In this document: positions 467 to 11,302 of the stretch, piece after piece
How positions within the stretch are numbered: the first letter of the stretch is position 1
Layout: the number at the start of each line of letters is the position of its first letter
Assembly (NCBI GenBank): GCA_963713825.1
Contig: CAVQNG010000003.1
Coordinates: 1,280,001-1,344,000 of the forward strand
Direction of reading: 5' to 3'
Origin: an uncultured Acidobacteriota bacterium
GTDB lineage: Bacteria > Acidobacteriota > Thermoanaerobaculia > Multivoradales > JAHEKO01
DNA length: 64,000 nucleotides
Translations under genes and position numbers: made by a program
Notes under the pieces: generated by a model
Databases searched by the model: none
What the model saw: only the letters and a program-made list of their open reading frames with translations
What the model was told of the DNA's origin: nothing

Positions 467-3139
467 CTAACTTTCCACCAACTCGAAGCGTCCCTGGAAG
501 AAGCGGAGCTTCTCGGGTTCGTAGACGAACCGCAGGCCGCGGATGTCGTCACGCCGCTCGTAGAGCCGGATGATGCCGTCGGCCACCGCCCGCATGTGAT
601 CGCGGGTGTAGACGCGCCGGGGGATTGTCAGGCGCACGAGCTCCAGGGGGGGGCGGTAATTTTCGCCCGTGTTGGGGTCGCGGCCCTTTGAGACGTTGCC
701 GCGCTCCATGGCCCGGACACCAGTCTCGACGTAGATCTCAGCGGCCAGGCGCTGCGATGGGTACTCGTCCTGGTCGATATGGGGCAGGAAGCGTTTGGCA
801 TCCAGAAAGATGGCGTGGCTGCCCGGGGGCGTGACGATGGGCACGCCGGCATCCAGGAGCATCTGACCGAGGGCTGCGGTCTGTAGCACTCTGGCTCGAA
901 TGTAACGGTCGTCGAGCATCTCCTCGACTCCCTGGGCGATGGCTGCCAGATCGCCAGCCGCCAGGCCGCCGTCGGTAATGTTGCCCTCGTAGACGCGCAG
1001 CAGATCCAGCGACTTCTTGGCCCACTCGGCGTTGTCCCGGTAGGCCAGGAGACCGCCGATGTTGATCAGGAAGTCCTTCTTGCCTGAGACCGTGCAGCCG
1101 TCCCCGTAGAGCAGCATCTCGCGGAGGATGTCGCGGACTTTGGTCTTTGCATAATGCGGATCTCGCTGTTGGATCATGTAGGCGTTCTCGGCCATCCGCG
1201 TGGCATCGAAGAAGACCGGAATGTGGTGGTTGGAGCAGTAGGCGTAGACCTCCCGCATGTTCTCCATCGAGACGGGCTGGCCGCCAGCCATGTTCACCGA
1301 GTGCTCGAAAGAGATGTAGGCGATCTTCTCGGCGCCGTGCTCGTCGACCAGGGCCTCCAGCTTGGCCATGTCGATGTTGCCTTTCCAGGGGAACTCGCTG
1401 CTGGGGTCATGGGCCTCGTCGACAATGACGTCGGCGAAAATTCCACCTGCCATCTCCTGGTGAAGCTTGGTCGTGGTGAAGTACATGTTCCCAGGCACCA
1501 GCTGTCCGGGTTCGATCATGACTTCGGAGAGGATCTGTTCGGCGGCGCGCCCCTGATGCGTCGGGATGATGTACTCGTAGCCAGTGGCTTCCCGAAGGAC
1601 CTCCACCAGGTGCAGGTAGTCATCAGAAGTTGTGGGTGTGGCGCGAGCCGCGTCGTAGGCGGCCCACTGGTCGGTGCTCATGGCCGAGGTGCCGGAGTCG
1701 GTGAGCAGATCGATGGTGACGTCCGCCGAGCGCAGAAGAAAGGTGTTGTAGCCCGCCTCTGCAATGGCCTTGCGGCGCTCTTCCAGGCTGAGCGTGGCGA
1801 TGCGCTCTATGGTGTGGATGACGAAGGGATAGGTCTCGAACTCGAAGGGCTCGAGGTCGGAGTAGACCCAGCGATACTGCATCTCGTCCCTCCAGGTTCC
1901 TTCTTGGAGCAGCTCGAGGGGAGGCACGCTGTCCCGTTGCTTGTAGAGACTGATGATGGCATCGGCCACCTGCTCGAGCTGACGAGTCGTCATGGCGAGC
2001 CGTGGAATCTGGACGGGAACCTGATTGTCGCGGCCGACGAGACCGTGGGCCAGGGCGCGAACCCCGGACATTTCGTAGAGGGCGGCAGAGAAAGCATCCT
2101 GCTGGAAAGTCTCCAGATGCGGCAAGAACTCGTCAGCCAGGATGTAGGCGCCGTCGCAGCCCCTCTCCACCGGCACTGCGGCTTCGCGCAGGCGGTTGTT
2201 GAAGTGCTCGGTCTGCTGCATGACCCACTGCACCTCTTCCTCCAAGCACATCTCCTCGAGGCCGCGGGCAAAGACCTCCATGGTCCTTCCCGCCATGCCG
2301 CCGTAGGTGTGGAGGCCCTCGTAGACCACCACTTCGTTCATGAAGTGTTCATGGTCTTCGGGGTTATCCGTGGCCAGCAGGCCACCGGTGGCGCACTTGG
2401 GGTCCTGGGCTCCGTCGATCTGGAAGATGTGGGCGGTTTTGGCGATCTCCTTGACCAGGGCAGCGATGCTGCGAGCCGCCATCCCCTCTTCGTGCCGCTG
2501 GAGGTACCAGGCATTCTCGATGACACGGGAACCGTCGAGCACCAGGCGCTTGCCGTAACGGTCGGCCAGCGCCCGGACGGCGCGCAGGTTCTCCAAGCTG
2601 AAGGGGTGCTGTCCGTCACCGAAGGCTTGCAGGCCCACGATGGCGACCTGGCCCCCTTTCAGGATCTCCTCGAGCCGTTCGAGGTCCACATTGCCGGTGA
2701 AGACCTCGGCCTTGTGATCCCGGATATCGGGGACCTCCACATCGCGAGGGGTCAGGACGTCGATGCGGGTACGGGCATTGGAAGGCAGCTGTGAACCAGC
2801 CGGCACCATGGTGGAGGTGACCAGCTTGACGCATCCCAGTACGTTGTGGGTCGGGCAGATGTAGGTGTGTCCCAGGACCTCGTGCACGGCCTTTTCCAGG
2901 CGCTCGAAGTTCCGAGCTCCGGCGTAGGCCTCGTCGCCGATGAGCTGACCCGATAGCTGCTCCTGGGTCATGGCACTCGTGCCGAGTGAGCACATGTCGA
3001 AGGCAACCTGGGAGGGAGTCAGGTTGAAGACGTTGAAGTGGGCCTCCGCCAGGTATTTCTTGCGTTCCTCGAGAGTGGGGAAGGAGATCGGTCGGATCGT
3101 CTTGATCTTGTGCGGCTCGTGCGCGAGCATTCGGGTCAT
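467..3139 (-). CDS. tpl: Tandem-duplicated tyrosine phenol-lyase-like beta-eliminating lyase (two fused PLP fold-type I domains)
   Basis: C-half has DLLTDSGT, PTHQGR, GNMYFTTT, VNMAGGQPVS, SGKKD, ERG..S.GR, RLTIPRRVYT and LRFF. N-half has GDEAYAG and VVYEGLHTYGGMAGR. RBS GGAGGAG upstream. Confidence 0.88.
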   Translation of the reverse strand: MTRMLAHEPHKIKTIRPISFPTLEERKKYLAEAHFNVFNLTPSQVAFDMCSLGTSAMTQEQLSGQLIGDEAYAGARNFERLEKAVHEVLGHTYICPTHNVLGCVKLVTSTMVPAGSQLPSNARTRIDVLTPRDVEVPDIRDHKAEVFTGNVDLERLEEILKGGQVAIVGLQAFGDGQHPFSLENLRAVRALADRYGKRLVLDGSRVIENAWYLQRHEEGMAARSIAALVKEIAKTAHIFQIDGAQDPKCATGGLLATDNPEDHEHFMNEVVVYEGLHTYGGMAGRTMEVFARGLEEMCLEEEVQWVMQQTEHFNNRLREAAVPVERGCDGAYILADEFLPHLETFQQDAFSAALYEMSGVRALAHGLVGRDNQVPVQIPRLAMTTRQLEQVADAIISLYKQRDSVPPLELLQEGTWRDEMQYRWVYSDLEPFEFETYPFVIHTIERIATLSLEERRKAIAEAGYNTFLLRSADVTIDLLTDSGTSAMSTDQWAAYDAARATPTTSDDYLHLVEVLREATGYEYIIPTHQGRAAEQILSEVMIEPGQLVPGNMYFTTTKLHQEMAGGIFADVIVDEAHDPSSEFPWKGNIDMAKLEALVDEHGAEKIAYISFEHSVNMAGGQPVSMENMREVYAYCSNHHIPVFFDATRMAENAYMIQQRDPHYAKTKVRDILREMLLYGDGCTVSGKKDFLINIGGLLAYRDNAEWAKKSLDLLRVYEGNITDGGLAAGDLAAIAQGVEEMLDDRYIRARVLQTAALGQMLLDAGVPIVTPPGSHAIFLDAKRFLPHIDQDEYPSQRLAAEIYVETGVRAMERGNVSKGRDPNTGENYRPPLELVRLTIPRRVYTRDHMRAVADGIIRLYERRDDIRGLRFVYEPEKLRFFQGRFELVES

Positions 3140-6839: not shown

Positions 6840-6887
6840 GAAGAGAAGGCCCCGAGTGTAGGGTTGAAAGCCGACGACGGAGGAGTC

Positions 6888-8048
6888 ATGAATGAGATCG
6901 ACCGGAGGAACTTCCTGATGATGAGCTCTGCAGGAGCGGCAGCGCTCGGTTTGGGCGGTGGCACGGCGGGTGCGGAGGAACCCGATGGTGGACCTTCGCC
7001 CGTGGTGCGAATGCACGGCGACGGCCTTGGCTTGACCCCCGGAGAGTACGCGGCATGTCTCGGGCAGCTAGCTGCCGAGGGCAAGGTCGAGCCCGATTAC
7101 TACTCGCGAGGGGGGTGCGTCGAGACTCTGGAACGCCGAATGGCGGAGCTGTTGGGCAAGGAACGGGCCGTCTTCTTTCCGACCGGAACGCTTGCCAATC
7201 AACTCGCGGTCAGGGTGTTGGCCGGAGAGGAGGGCAGGGTTCTCTTGCAGGAGGAGAGCCACCTCTACAACGACTCTGGGGACTGTTGTCAGCGATTGAG
7301 CAATCTACCCGTGATCGGATTGGGGCCAGGTGAGGCGTCGTTTTCGCTGCAGCAAGTCAAGGCCGAGGTGGCGAGGGCCGCCAGCGGCAGAGTTAGCACC
7401 CCAATCCGCGTCATCAGCATCGAGTCGCCCGTCCGCCGGCTCTGGCAGGAGGTCTTCGACTACGAGGAAATGAAGGGCATTTCGGCCTTTGCGCGTGAGG
7501 AAGGCATCGGCATGCACCTCGATGGTGCCAGGCTCTTTCTGGCGCCGCCCTACACTGGGGTGGGCGTCAAGGAGTATGCGGCGCTCTTCGACACCGTCTA
7601 CATTTCACTTTGGAAGTACTTCAACGCGGGGTCTGGCGCGATTCTGGCGGGCCCGGATGCTCTGCTGAAAGAGATGTTCCATACGCGCCGCATGTACGGT
7701 GGCAGCCTGCCCTATGGCTGGGCCTTCGCAGCGGTGGCAGGCCACTACCTCGAGGGCTTCTCGGACCGATTCCAGGAGGCGGTCAATGGGTCGGAGGAGG
7801 TCCTCCGGCGCCTGGAACAGCAATCGGGCTTCGAGATCGAGCGCGTCCCCAACGGCACCAACACTTCCCGCCTAAAAGTGGCTGGCACCAATGCGCAGGA
7901 ATTTCGGCGGCGGCTGGCTGAGAGGAACATCGACCTCCCCAAGCCACTGGAAGAGGGCGCGGAATTCAAGATCCAGGTCAACGAGACCTGGCGCTTCATG
8001 GCGCCAGAACTGTTGTTCGAGGCGCTGGTCGAGGCCAGGTCCGGCTAG
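6888..8048 (+). CDS. Low-specificity L-threonine aldolase-family PLP enzyme with Tat signal peptide
   Basis: DRRNFL twin-arginine leader ending AGA; FFPTGTLAN, HLDGAR and SLWKYF (PLP Lys) motifs. GGAG RBS before ATG 6888. Confidence 0.85.
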   Translation: MNEIDRRNFLMMSSAGAAALGLGGGTAGAEEPDGGPSPVVRMHGDGLGLTPGEYAACLGQLAAEGKVEPDYYSRGGCVETLERRMAELLGKERAVFFPTGTLANQLAVRVLAGEEGRVLLQEESHLYNDSGDCCQRLSNLPVIGLGPGEASFSLQQVKAEVARAASGRVSTPIRVISIESPVRRLWQEVFDYEEMKGISAFAREEGIGMHLDGARLFLAPPYTGVGVKEYAALFDTVYISLWKYFNAGSGAILAGPDALLKEMFHTRRMYGGSLPYGWAFAAVAGHYLEGFSDRFQEAVNGSEEVLRRLEQQSGFEIERVPNGTNTSRLKVAGTNAQEFRRRLAERNIDLPKPLEEGAEFKIQVNETWRFMAPELLFEALVEARSG

Positions 8049-8063: not shown

Positions 8064-11060
8064 CTACTGAACTTCGGCACTCTCCAGACGGTCGATCGCT
8101 TGGGCGAACAACTCGCGTTGCGGCTCGGTGGGCGGGGCGTCGGTGCTTTCCAGGTCCGAGGCCAGTGAGGTCAATACCCTGGCAACGGATCGAACCTCAT
8201 CGTCGGCTTCGCCGCCAGCCTCCTCGGTCTGGGCCACCAGGGCTACCACCCTCTCCAGTGCAGCCGCAATCTCGTTCTGGAGCTCCAACAAGTTCGACAA
8301 CTCGGCCGAGGTGACCTCGACGCGTGGATCCATGGCCACCTCGAGCTTTTGCGAGACAGTCTGGCCGCCGGCTGTAAGCCGGACCTCATAGGTGCCAGGT
8401 AGCACGAAAGCGCCCTCGGGTCGGGCAGGCGTCGCCCGGCCGGGCACAGCGGCGATGGAGTAGCTCGAGCTGAGGGTCTGGGGCGCCGGGTAGCGCAGAT
8501 CCCAAACGAACCGATGGTGTCCAGGTCCCGTAGTTGGCGTTGGAGGTTCGCCTAGCCAGATGTCGGCGAAGTAGATGCGCGCATTGGGCGGCTCGATCTC
8601 GTCGTCGCTGCCGAAGCGCCTGACCAGCGTGCCCTTGGAGTCGAGAATCTCGAGAACCACAGGGCCGGTTCCGTTGGACGGCAGGATGTAGTCCAGGATT
8701 GCTCCTGCCGGCGGGTTTTCACCTGTCGGCTCCTCTGGGGGCAACGGCGTGTCCTTGTTTTGATTGAAGCGAAGGCGCCAGGCGGCAGAAGGCGGCACCA
8801 GGACTGGTTCATCCCCGAGGTCGGCGGCCGCCAGCCGCCGTAGGGGAGCCACGGCGTCCAGGACCCAGATCGCCCGACCTTCGGTGGCCACGATCACATC
8901 GTCCTCATGGACCAGAAGGTCGTTGATGCCGGTCGTTGGAAGATTGAGCTTCAGGCTTTGCCAGGTCTCGCCGTCGTCAAAAGAAACGTGGACCCCGCGA
9001 TTCGTGCCTGTGAAGAGCAGGCCCGCTTGCTCCGGGTCCTGCCGTATCGCACCGACCCATTCGTTGGGTGGCAGACCATTCCCGATCTCGGTCCAGGTGG
9101 CCCCAAAGTCGTGGGTGCGGTAGGCCATCGGCCTTGGGTCGTCGACTCGGTGACGATCGACAGCCACGTAGGCGGTCCCGGGGTCCGAGGCGGAGGCGTC
9201 GATGATGTTGACTTTGCTCCAATCGGGCAGGCTCGGCGGAGTGACGTCGCTCCAGGTGGCGCCGTCATCTCGTGTGAGCTGAATCCGGCCATTGGTTGTC
9301 CCTATCCAGATCAGGCCGTCCGCGGCCGGTGACGGGGCAATCGCGAAGATCACGCCGTAGCCGCACTCGGTGGCTCGCTCCATGGGGACGTCGCCATCGC
9401 AATCGCCGGCCTCTTCGACAGCTCCCGTCAGATCGGGACTGATGGTGTCCCAGCTGGCGCCTCCGTCGAGAGATCGGAACAGGACCTGAGCGCCGACGAA
9501 GATGGGGTGTGGTGAGCGCGGGGATATGGCCAAGGGTGTTATCCAGTCGTAGCGGTAGCGCGTCGTTCCGGGGCGTGCCGCATAGCTCGACAGCGGCCAA
9601 GGAGAGACGTTCTGTACCTGCCCGGTACGTCCGTTCCATTTGGAGACCCTGCCGCCCAGACCGGCGCCGTAGACAATGTCGGGATCGGCAGGATCGGGCA
9701 CATCACCATCTCGCTCGTCGCCGCCTACTGGGCTCCAATCGCGAAACGTGATCTGGCCATAGTCGCTGCGGCTGGCGATACCCACCGTGCCGCTGTCCTG
9801 TTGTCCGCTGTAGATGCGATAGGGGAATCGATTGTCCACGGCCAGGCGATAGAACTGTCCGGTCGGTTGGTTGTACCAACTACTCCAACTCTTGCCGCCG
9901 TTGAAGGTAACGACTGCGCCCTGGTCGGCGCCGGTGATCATGCGTTGGGAATCGGTGGGGTCGATCCACAGGGCGTGGTAGTCATCGCCGCCGGGTGAGC
10001 TACGGACGATCTGAAAAGTCGTGCCTCCGTCAGTGGAGCGGCGGAGGGGCTGTCCTCCCGCCCAGACCGTGTTGGAATCCGAGGGGCCGGGCAAGAGCCA
10101 GCCCATGTAGCTCCCCACCAGGCTGGAATCGTCGTTGACCAGTTCCCAGGTGACCCCACCGTCTTCGGAGCGATAGAGACCACCGCCATCGGCAAGCTCC
10201 AATCCTGCCCAGACCCGTTGGCCGTCAGTACCTGGCGCGACTGCCAGCTCGATGCGACTGGTTGGTTCTTCCGGCAATCCGGTGCCAGCCACTTTTGTCC
10301 AGGTGCGGCCGGCGTCGTCGGATCGGTAGATGCCACTATTCGGCCCGACTGTGGGCTGAAAGTAGTCCAGCCAAGGGTAGCGACGGACCTGCCAGAGAGA
10401 GGCGTAGAGAAGGTCTGGAAGCTCGGGTGTGCCAGCGATGTCAGCAGCCCCTGAATCGGCATCCAGATAGAGGACCTTGTCCCAGCTGTGACCACCATCC
10501 TCGGTGCGGAACAGTCCACGCTCTTCGTTGGGTCCGAAGACGTGTCCCAGGGCCGCGACGATGGCGGTGTCGGCGTTCCTGGGATCCACCCAGAGGGCTC
10601 CGATGTGTTTCGTATCCTCGAGCCCGAGATGCATCCAGGTCTCTCCACCGTCGGTGGAGCGGTAGACGCCGTCGCCATCGACAATGTCCCAGCGTTGATG
10701 GATCTGTCCGGTGCCGACCCAGATGACCTGCGGGTCGCTGGGCGCGATCGTCAAGGCGCCGATGGAGGCGCTCCCCTGGTCATCGAAGAGCGGCTGCCAC
10801 GTCGAGCCGGCGTCGGTAGTTCTCCATACGCCACCGTCAGCGCCGCCGAAGTAGTAGGTTGCCGGATCGCCTGGGATGCCGGCTACAGCTGTCGCCCAGC
10901 CGCCACGAAAAGGTCCGACGAGCCGCCAGCTGAGAGCGGAGTAGGCTGATTCGGGAACTGCCATCTGGGCGGCGACTGACGCCCCCGCACCGAGCATGGC
11001 CAGTCCTGAGATTGCAAGAATTGAGCTGATAGAGACGAACCTTCGACTGAGATCGATCAC
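8064..11060 (-). CDS. Secreted VPS10/BNR-repeat beta-propeller (glycosyl hydrolase-like) protein
   Basis: WRLVGPFRGG start, many S/T-x-D-x-G-x-T/S-W Asp-box repeats, NQPTGQFY and GQQDSG. GTG start after AGGAGG. Confidence 0.85.
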   Translation of the reverse strand: MIDLSRRFVSISSILAISGLAMLGAGASVAAQMAVPESAYSALSWRLVGPFRGGWATAVAGIPGDPATYYFGGADGGVWRTTDAGSTWQPLFDDQGSASIGALTIAPSDPQVIWVGTGQIHQRWDIVDGDGVYRSTDGGETWMHLGLEDTKHIGALWVDPRNADTAIVAALGHVFGPNEERGLFRTEDGGHSWDKVLYLDADSGAADIAGTPELPDLLYASLWQVRRYPWLDYFQPTVGPNSGIYRSDDAGRTWTKVAGTGLPEEPTSRIELAVAPGTDGQRVWAGLELADGGGLYRSEDGGVTWELVNDDSSLVGSYMGWLLPGPSDSNTVWAGGQPLRRSTDGGTTFQIVRSSPGGDDYHALWIDPTDSQRMITGADQGAVVTFNGGKSWSSWYNQPTGQFYRLAVDNRFPYRIYSGQQDSGTVGIASRSDYGQITFRDWSPVGGDERDGDVPDPADPDIVYGAGLGGRVSKWNGRTGQVQNVSPWPLSSYAARPGTTRYRYDWITPLAISPRSPHPIFVGAQVLFRSLDGGASWDTISPDLTGAVEEAGDCDGDVPMERATECGYGVIFAIAPSPAADGLIWIGTTNGRIQLTRDDGATWSDVTPPSLPDWSKVNIIDASASDPGTAYVAVDRHRVDDPRPMAYRTHDFGATWTEIGNGLPPNEWVGAIRQDPEQAGLLFTGTNRGVHVSFDDGETWQSLKLNLPTTGINDLLVHEDDVIVATEGRAIWVLDAVAPLRRLAAADLGDEPVLVPPSAAWRLRFNQNKDTPLPPEEPTGENPPAGAILDYILPSNGTGPVVLEILDSKGTLVRRFGSDDEIEPPNARIYFADIWLGEPPTPTTGPGHHRFVWDLRYPAPQTLSSSYSIAAVPGRATPARPEGAFVLPGTYEVRLTAGGQTVSQKLEVAMDPRVEVTSAELSNLLELQNEIAAALERVVALVAQTEEAGGEADDEVRSVARVLTSLASDLESTDAPPTEPQRELFAQAIDRLESAEVQ

Positions 11061-11302
11061 AGGGTACTCCCTCCTTGGTGTGATGATAGCTCTGCTGGAT
11101 TGCGATCCAGGCGGTGTTGGTTGATATGAGTGCCGAGAACCTGCGACCTTGGACGCACACACCTCACCTTAATTCGGGTTGAGAGGTTGGTCGGGCTGCT
11201 CTCGAGCGAACTCTGGGCCGTCGGTCAGACCAGGTGCCAGGGGAATTGCGAAGCGGACCAACGCACCTCGTTGTCTGGCAATCGAGGTCCTGTCGTCAGT
11301 AG

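Follow-up and report, generated by a model that had tools for sequence, protein, structure and literature searches.

A fused double tyrosine phenol-lyase homologue with a predicted single composite active site in an uncultured Acidobacteriota bacterium

Can two unequal copies of a dimeric enzyme, joined in one polypeptide, build a single active site between them? This question is raised by a gene on the reverse strand of the window analysed here, a stretch of 64,000 nucleotides (nt) from an uncultured Acidobacteriota bacterium (GenBank assembly GCA_963713825.1, contig CAVQNG010000003.1, positions 1,280,001 to 1,344,000). The encoded protein, hereafter the fused lyase, consists of an N-terminal and a C-terminal half (N-half and C-half) that both resemble tyrosine phenol-lyase (TPL), a textbook pyridoxal phosphate (PLP) enzyme and an industrial catalyst for L-DOPA. 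The residue pattern and the predicted structures suggest a single-chain pseudo-heterodimer of the TPL/tryptophanase family with one composite active site (probability about three in four), and its reaction is probably TPL-like.

Two halves with reciprocal active-site residues

The open reading frame (ORF) at 467-3139 was checked by translation and is uninterrupted over 890 residues, from an ATG start, with a Shine-Dalgarno-like run (GGAGGAG) 7 nt upstream, to a stop codon at 467-469. Pfam model PF01212 (Beta_elim_lyase) was matched in two stretches of the protein (314.7 bits against a cut-off of 27), and each half was also matched separately (C-half, 232.3 bits; N-half, 88.4 bits). The halves are 29% identical and meet at about residue 434/435 (nt 1838); an original prediction, made by a model from the sequence alone, had described a chain of this length with two TPL-like halves and a junction near nt 1840. 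In a search of PDB sequences, residues 435-887 were aligned end to end with solved TPLs (1c7g, E 1.4e-161; tryptophanases, E 1e-115 or weaker). The N-half searched alone (residues 1-434) gave a TPL as its best match (9j3u, E 3.2e-60) over its whole length. An N-terminal arm-like segment is kept in both halves.

In TPL, the general acid Tyr71, Glu69 and the 288-291 loop of each active site are supplied by the partner subunit. TPL numbering was carried over to both halves by a gap-free HMMER alignment to PDB 1c7g. The active site of this family is described as sitting between two subunits of a 'catalytic dimer' (passages in PMC10170061 and PMC11512013), and in Proteus tryptophan indole-lyase the tyrosine homologous to Tyr71 (Tyr-72*) is likewise described as supplied by the other chain of that dimer (a passage in PMC11301627). 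Roles of Thr124, Arg381, Phe448 and Phe449 of TPL as specificity residues are given in a passage of PMC10170061.

The C-half retains the equivalents of Phe36, Gly52, Gln98, Arg100, Glu103, Phe123, Thr124, Asn185, Asp214, Arg217, Ser254, Lys256, Lys257, Asn262, Met379, Arg381, Arg404 and Phe448/449 (TPL numbering). At the positions of Glu69, Tyr71, Met288 and Tyr291 it carries Ala, Pro, Asn and Asp. Conversely, the N-half retains the equivalents of Glu69, Tyr71 and Tyr291, with Leu at position 288, and carries Asn, Leu, Asp, Ala and Gln at the positions of Gln98, Arg100, Ser254, Lys256 and Lys257; NMYFTTT, Arg381, Arg404 and Phe448/449 are missing. The TPL cofactor set (Lys257, Lys256, Ser254, Asp214, Arg217, Asn185, Gln98 and Arg100) is complete in the C-half and identical there in 116/116 close homologues, and the N-half retains Asp214 and Arg217 only. 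The specificity residues Thr124, Arg381, Phe448 and Phe449 correspond to Thr555, Arg813, Phe880 and Phe881 of the C-half and have no counterpart in the N-half. The C-half residue at the position of Tyr71 is Pro502, a variable position (Pro in 68, Ala in 35, Thr in 8 and Ser in 5 of the 116 close homologues). The tyrosine is present in the N-half only (Tyr72), so that the general acid is encoded once per chain and not once per domain. All motifs and losses named in the original prediction were found in the translation where it had placed them (Table 1).

The same genome encodes, on contig 25 (1348-2769, forward strand), a complete stand-alone tryptophanase-like paralogue of 473 residues in which all shared-site residues are present. 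It carries Asp, Val, His and Phe at TPL positions 124, 381, 448 and 449, Asp124 and His448 being of the tryptophanase type, and in NCBIfam it passed the subfamily model but scored below the TnaA and TPL equivalog cut-offs. Equivalents of Thr124, Arg381 and Phe448, which had been put forward as marks of TPL rather than tryptophanase, are present in the C-half of the fused lyase; the stand-alone paralogue differs.

Conservation and selection among fused homologues

A search with the full-length protein retrieved 1618 proteins at E ≤ 0.001 (lengths 489-1558 residues). Among the 120 best homologues, 116 measured 860-920 residues and had the same junction. A broader set was collected with the N-half as query against 1.8 billion representatives and by a word-based search with a distant fused member; it comprised 239 fused proteins of 840-990 residues (17 single-linkage clusters at 60% identity), and two long domains were recognised by hidden Markov models in 238 of the 239 candidates.

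Across this set, Glu69 was found in 238 N-halves and 50 C-halves, Tyr71 in 238 and 9, and Tyr291 in 238 and 1, respectively. Lys257 was found in 17 N-halves and in all 239 C-halves; Lys256, Ser254, Asp214, Gln98 and Arg100 were each present in 239/239 C-halves, and the TPL-type specificity residues in 224-229. The reciprocal residue pattern is near-universal, not universal, among the fused proteins. The survey of homologues of about 890 residues that had been proposed with the original prediction found this pattern conserved, and random decay of the N-half was not seen in the 239 proteins.

The mean identity of the 116 close homologues to the query was 80% for the N-half and 85% for the C-half. 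The four in-trans positions of the N-half were invariant, with an entropy of zero; for the 24 in-cis positions of the C-half the mean entropy was 0.003 (23 of 24 invariant; Met811, 99%). Ratios of nonsynonymous to synonymous substitution (dN/dS), calculated by the Nei-Gojobori method against 12 related loci, lay between 0.052 and 0.152 in the N-half and between 0.024 and 0.115 in the C-half. Strong purifying selection acts on both halves and, because its in-trans positions are invariant and its dN/dS is low, the N-half is not decaying.

Table 1. Coordinates in the window of the fused lyase, its parts and its active-site motifs, with conservation among the 116 close homologues and the 239 fused proteins where given.
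Feature	Position	Strand	Basis or conservation
Fused double beta-eliminating lyase, 890 residues	467..3139	(-)	ORF, Pfam, NCBIfam
N-half, residues 1-434: TPL-like, without cofactor lysine, with partner-lent residues	1838..3139	(-)	9j3u match
C-half, residues 435-890: TPL-like, full cofactor and substrate site, without lent tyrosines	470..1837	(-)	1c7g, TIGR02618
Linker, about residues 419-437	1829..1885	(-)	Domain alignment ends; pLDDT about 89-93; 424-438 without long secondary-structure element
N-half GDEAYAG loop (Glu70 = TPL Glu69; Tyr72 = TPL Tyr71)	2918..2938	(-)	Both 116/116, 238/239
N-half HNVL, replacing phosphate-binding HQGR	2837..2848	(-)	Translation, homologue alignment
N-half DGAQD, replacing SGKKD (Gln245 at the cofactor lysine position)	2402..2416	(-)	Asp242 and Gln245, 116/116
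N-half YEGLHTYGGMAGR loop (Leu276 = TPL Met288; Tyr279 = TPL Tyr291)	2285..2323	(-)	116/116; Tyr291, 238/239
C-half degenerate DAARATPTT, replacing GDEAYAG loop (Glu69 to Ala; Tyr71 to Pro)	1628..1654	(-)	Alignment
C-half HQGR (TPL Gln98, Arg100)	1547..1558	(-)	116/116; 239/239
C-half NMYFTTT (TPL Phe123, Thr124)	1469..1489	(-)	116/116; Phe123 239/239, Thr124 227/239
C-half SGKKD (Lys688 = TPL Lys257, cofactor lysine)	1073..1087	(-)	116/116; 239/239
C-half degenerate loop YEGNITDGGLAAGD, including YEGNITDGG, replacing Y-G-G loop (Met288 to Asn; Tyr291 to Asp)	950..991	(-)	Alignment
C-half MERG (TPL Met379, Arg381)	698..709	(-)	Arg381, 224/239
C-half LRFF (TPL Phe448, Phe449)	497..508	(-)	229/239 and 224/239

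Departures from the pattern make up a series. The P0132 and P0137 groups retain both lysines and mostly the C-half Tyr71, with the C-half Tyr291 gone; in the P0133 and P0275 groups the N-half cofactor set is intact and the C-half lacks both tyrosines. The four clusters (14 proteins) share a lysine in both halves and C-half specificity residues that are neither TPL-like nor tryptophanase-like, and they may be two-cofactor intermediates with another substrate. A single sequence of 944 residues, labelled as a Chroococcales cyanobacterium (P0276), has the opposite polarity: its C-half carries the cofactor set (with Arg217 replaced by His) plus the lent tyrosines, and its N-half has retained the lysine set but shows Phe at 71, Cys at 291 and none of the substrate residues.

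In a tree of 55 rows the N-halves fell on one side of a branch (SH-aLRT, an approximate likelihood ratio support, 92), and the C-halves require at least three changes. The topologies of N-halves and C-halves mirror each other; long-branch attraction among the N-halves was flagged, and the fusion may have had a single or a multiple origin. It is a doubtful, though conceivable, proposition that living lineages preserve the stages of a stepwise, repeatable path by which a symmetric enzyme with two sites became an obligate pseudo-heterodimer with one, and that, in the fully reciprocal group, the fixed Asp/Gln/Arg residues at the core of the dead pocket form an effector site tuning the single active site.

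Predicted pairing, proposed mechanism and alternatives

The whole chain was modelled with AlphaFold2 from an alignment of 58 rows, with a mean predicted local distance difference test score (pLDDT) of 93.1 and a predicted template modelling score (pTM) of 0.91. In a second prediction each half was entered as a chain of its own, together with PLP, and the interface score ipSAE was 0.93, 0.93 and 0.92, against 0.00 for the best of three controls. In calibration, 116 of the 157 solved complexes attained this mark, as did 2 of the 215 mismatched pairs. Contact agreement among the two-chain runs was at least 96% and partner pLDDT at least 93. The predicted interface joins N-half residues 69-76, 271-277 and 281-286 to C-half residues 466-472, 482-485, 528-532 and 693-694, with mirror contacts as well, and has the pseudo-two-fold arrangement expected for the catalytic dimer. 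The N-half loop 69-76 faces C-half residues 466-472, 482-485 and 528-532 in this prediction. Contacts were predicted between Glu70 of the N-half and Gly483, Thr484 and Asn693 of the C-half; the Glu70-Asn693 and Glu70-Gly483/Thr484 pairs match the monovalent-cation site of TPL (Gly52, Asn262 and Glu69*).

The composite site with in-trans donors in the N-half, as originally proposed, is backed by the pattern in 239 proteins, purifying selection, the invariant positions and the predicted interface. The two fold-type-I domains are predicted to pack like the two subunits of the TPL catalytic dimer. One PLP would be bound to Lys688 of the C-half and surrounded by Asp645, Arg648, Gln529/Arg531 and Ser685/Lys687, and the substrate would be held, by homology to TPL, by Arg836, Thr555, Arg813 and Phe880/Phe881. 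From the N-half, Tyr72 would act as the general acid protonating the leaving ring, Glu70 would complete the monovalent-cation site with Gly483 and Asn693 (consistent with the predicted contacts), and the loop from Leu276 to Tyr279 would form a wall of the substrate pocket. The mirror-image site would be dead on both sides, lacking the lysine, the phosphate-binding and substrate residues, and the tyrosines of the C-half. The most likely reaction would be the beta-elimination of tyrosine to phenol, pyruvate and ammonia at one site per chain, and two chains would probably form a pseudo-tetramer with two sites if TPL is taken as the guide.

Several observations weigh against a composite site of this kind, or against a TPL reaction at it. 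The five AlphaFold2 models were spread from pLDDT 93.1 down to 75.1, and the ipSAE calibration is only roughly valid here (own alignment and a riding ligand). The complex score is a measure of likeness to TPL dimers, not of binding, and, since TPL dimers are solved, it may stem from the model's memory of them. The structural check suggested with the original prediction, namely whether Tyr72 reaches the C-half site, was answered in part: the halves are predicted to pair as the catalytic dimer and the stretch of interface residues takes in Tyr72, but the contact pairs listed include none with Tyr72, and Tyr279 lies outside the listed interface residues. The models also do not separate pairing within a chain from swapped pairing between chains. 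The residue pattern has exceptions (17/239 N-halves with the lysine, 9 C-halves with Tyr71 and the reversed P0276), and every one of the 77 genome loci that carry the fused gene comes from a metagenome assembly. As to the reaction, the subfamily of the fused lyase in NCBIfam is NF009709; on the TPL equivalog TIGR02618 the C-half alone scored 630.5 bits, below the cut-off of 720.7, and the N-half alone 248.7, the whole protein reaching 874.2 bits, above the cut-off, only through the sum of two domains. The N-half would moreover offer Leu, not Met, at TPL position 288.

The last two points also favour the same architecture with another reaction, on another beta-substituted amino acid such as S-alkyl-cysteines or another aromatic amino acid. 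Specificity varies among the fused proteins, lineages P0132, P0133, P0134 and P0137 carrying non-TPL residues at 124, 381, 448 and 449, and the gene neighbourhood is not conserved and gives no pathway pointer. Against this, the C-half has Phe36, Phe123, Thr124, Met379, Arg381, Arg404, Phe448 and Phe449; in Foldseek alignments it is 52-54% identical to solved TPLs, versus 35-43% for most tryptophanases; its best NCBIfam model is that of TPL; and Leu at 288 is found as well in P0147, a TPL-like representative that stands alone. Another reaction is considered unlikely, though credible, and a TPL-like reaction is retained.

The composite site could also be built in a domain-swapped dimer, from the N-half of one chain and the C-half of a second. 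TPL is described as a tetramer of two catalytic dimers interlocked via N-terminal arms (a passage in PMC10170061), and arm-like segments occur in both halves of the fused lyase. The reciprocal residues are compatible with either topology, and the two-chain fold used separate halves and hence does not discriminate. The whole-chain model is nevertheless compact (pTM 0.91) with a well-scored linker, which suggests that a chain's own halves pair, and the swapped arrangement is regarded as quite improbable.

The N-half might instead be a regulatory or scaffold domain with an effector in its degenerate pocket, catalysis being left to the C-half with little contribution from the N-half. The original prediction had likewise proposed that the second pocket has become available for regulation or for a new role, and on this point only a weak hint was obtained. 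Among the 116 close homologues, the cofactor-core equivalents Asp175, Asp202, Ser204, Arg205, Asp242 and Gln245 of the N-half are each 98-100% conserved in their replaced form, and the set of 22 in-cis-equivalent positions had an entropy of 0.458 bits, against a half average of 0.763 (3.2% of random sets were as low; permutation P 0.03). The N-half equivalents of the substrate residues are variable, and the C-half loops that would close the pocket were more variable than average, not significantly so (entropy 0.743 versus 0.547, P 0.26). Loss of the equivalents of Arg100, Lys256 and Ser254 (to Leu, Ala and Asp) and the gain of Asp242 argue that the pocket does not bind phosphate. In nearly every member, Tyr71 and Tyr291 are gone from the C-half (kept in 9/239 and 1/239), so that a C-half alone or a pair of C-halves would miss the general acid, and exactly the residues gone from the C-half are kept in 238/239 N-halves. 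A largely non-catalytic N-half is therefore very unlikely, a regulatory role of the dead pocket is not supported and no ligand is indicated; the data are explained no less well by structural filling of the pocket than by a new ligand site.

Joining of neighbouring genes by an assembly or frameshift error, or decay of a duplicate, can be dismissed almost entirely: nothing was found in its favour, the junction is identical in the 116 of 120 best homologues of 860-920 residues and 238/239 candidates are two-domain, a complete ORF of more than 800 residues occurs at 70 loci of other genomes, dN/dS of the N-half is 0.05-0.15, and the gene is covered by independent metagenome contigs and, over the junction (1730-1883), by a 155-nt contig from an RNA library with zero mismatch.

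A split, two-gene form was also considered. The lysine was present in 66 of 71 N-half-like representatives of 400-530 residues and no split form was seen among them, shorter proteins having had no dedicated search. Among the five without the lysine, P0121 comes from a fused gene and is truncated, P0142 looks like a frameshifted part of one, a partial match of P0127 suggests a fragment, and two others have Arg at the lysine position.

Distribution of the gene and comparison with known systems

In a scan of genome collections 148 stretches were matched; a relative is encoded by 125 of them, and 79 distinct loci were retained. Matches extended across both halves at the 77 metagenome-assembled loci mentioned above, and the other two were stand-alone Bacillus genes. 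Phylum labels of the fused gene included Acidobacteriota, Gemmatimonadota, Planctomycetota, Myxococcota, Candidatus Eisenbacteria and others. Among the genome itself and 40 relatives, a match of the N-half type (E ≤ 1e-60) was found in 8 of 41 genomes: its own, 5/5 others of the genus, 1/19 of other genera in the family and 1/16 of other families of the order. Horizontal spread is suggested by this uneven occurrence, taken with an identity of 64-97% (best aligned segment) across phylum labels.

Conserved neighbour genes were not found when 181 flanking ORFs from 70 loci were clustered: the largest real cluster covered 3 loci, and the largest of all (5) was an artefact of ORF picking that held the fused gene itself. 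In the window, a gene for a 120-residue 6-pyruvoyl-tetrahydropterin synthase (PTPS/QueD-like, PF01242; 93-455, reverse strand) begins 12 nt past the stop codon of the fused lyase, on the same strand. A PTPS-like gene adjoins the fused lyase in 2/70 related loci, and the pairing is probably not a functional linkage. At 6864-8048 (forward strand), 4 kb from the fused lyase, a 394-residue protein is encoded in which a weak twin-arginine signal match (below the Pfam cut-off) precedes a threonine-aldolase-like Beta_elim_lyase domain; export would be uncommon for a PLP enzyme. An ORF of 1032 residues at 8064-11162 (reverse strand) contains many repeated D-G-G-x-T-W-like motifs.

DNA of the fused gene was detected at half or more of the sampled words in 17 sequencing runs, mostly sediment metagenomes, one of which is possibly the source. 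Short contigs matching the gene came from three RNA libraries: one of 262 nt (1 difference), one of 251 nt (8), one of 176 nt (5) and one of 155 nt that spans the junction without a difference. They hint only weakly at expression, since carry-over of DNA is possible. One metagenome contig joins 1489, at the codon edge of NMYFTTT, to 2918, at the codon edge of GDEAYAG, skipping 1428 nt with a shorter side of 21 letters. Rather than a deletion variant, it most likely represents an ordinary single-domain gene of another organism that matches at the two best-conserved motifs.

The C-half shares family and fold with TPL (EC 4.1.99.2; Citrobacter freundii, Erwinia herbicola; PDB 2tpl, 2ez1, 1c7g), with Foldseek template modelling scores of 0.94-0.98 on the target and all checked cofactor and substrate residues present, and its chemistry is expected to be equal. 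TPL is a homotetramer of identical 456-residue subunits with four equivalent sites, whereas the fused lyase has two 29%-identical copies and is expected to have one site per chain. To our knowledge, TPL has always been described as a homotetramer. Literature searches, with subscription-only papers outside their scope, turned up no account of a TPL or tryptophanase in fused form. Tryptophanase (tryptophan indole-lyase, EC 4.1.99.1; PDB 1ax4, 2c44) belongs to the same Pfam family and to NF009709 and also takes its catalytic tyrosine from the partner chain (a passage in PMC11301627), but it has other specificity residues (Asp124 and His448) and is unfused.

A beta-eliminating-lyase-family domain also occurs within a multi-domain chain in the thiocysteine lyase (SH) domain of the guangnanmycin pathway (PDB 9cen); such chains combine one lyase domain with unrelated modules, not two complementary copies. 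Two proteins, P0173 (1552 residues) and P0184 (3002 residues), contain a single beta-eliminating-lyase domain (residues 838-1268 and 85-511, respectively) and are presumably assembly-line enzymes like 9cen. The best 50 matches of a wide structural search with the fused lyase were to single domains (top match 8sbg, Z 54.6, model residues 431-887), and Foldseek likewise matched one half.

If the composite-site reading is true, the fused lyases would offer a natural test of why two sites are kept in dimeric PLP enzymes, and would exemplify a pseudo-enzyme domain held under selection through lending a few residues. A covalently linked catalytic pair might resist dissociation better, which is of interest for biocatalysis. 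Uncultured bacteria of sediment and soil, from several phyla, commonly carry the fused gene, and it may provide a main route of tyrosine breakdown or phenol formation there.

One site built from two unequal homologues has precedents. In serine palmitoyltransferase, of the alpha-oxoamine synthase family, a lysine-less paralogue (LCB1) and a catalytic paralogue (LCB2) make up one site, and a viral single-chain form is known. The glycine decarboxylase P-protein (GcvP/GLDC), a fold-type-I PLP enzyme, is described as a single chain of about 1000 residues or as an alpha/beta pair, with a glutamine in the lysine position of its N-terminal half and PLP bound by its C-terminal half, and GLDC is called unusual among fold-type-I enzymes (passages in PMC7259800). 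GcvP was absent from the PDB sequence matches of either half and from the best 50 wide structural matches, long models being poorly served by structural search. The P-protein differs in family and in reaction, a decarboxylation with the H-protein, and none of the searches showed it to be related in sequence to the fused lyase. Its alpha/beta split form has no counterpart seen for the TPL fusion among the N-half-like representatives of 400-530 residues. The logic is shared: Gln245 stands in the N-half of the fused lyase and Lys688 in its C-half, and one site per pair would follow. By this analogy, the fused lyase parallels a P-protein-like design reached independently in another PLP family, and would make its family the second of fold type I known to be on the P-protein route, or the third if serine palmitoyltransferase is counted.

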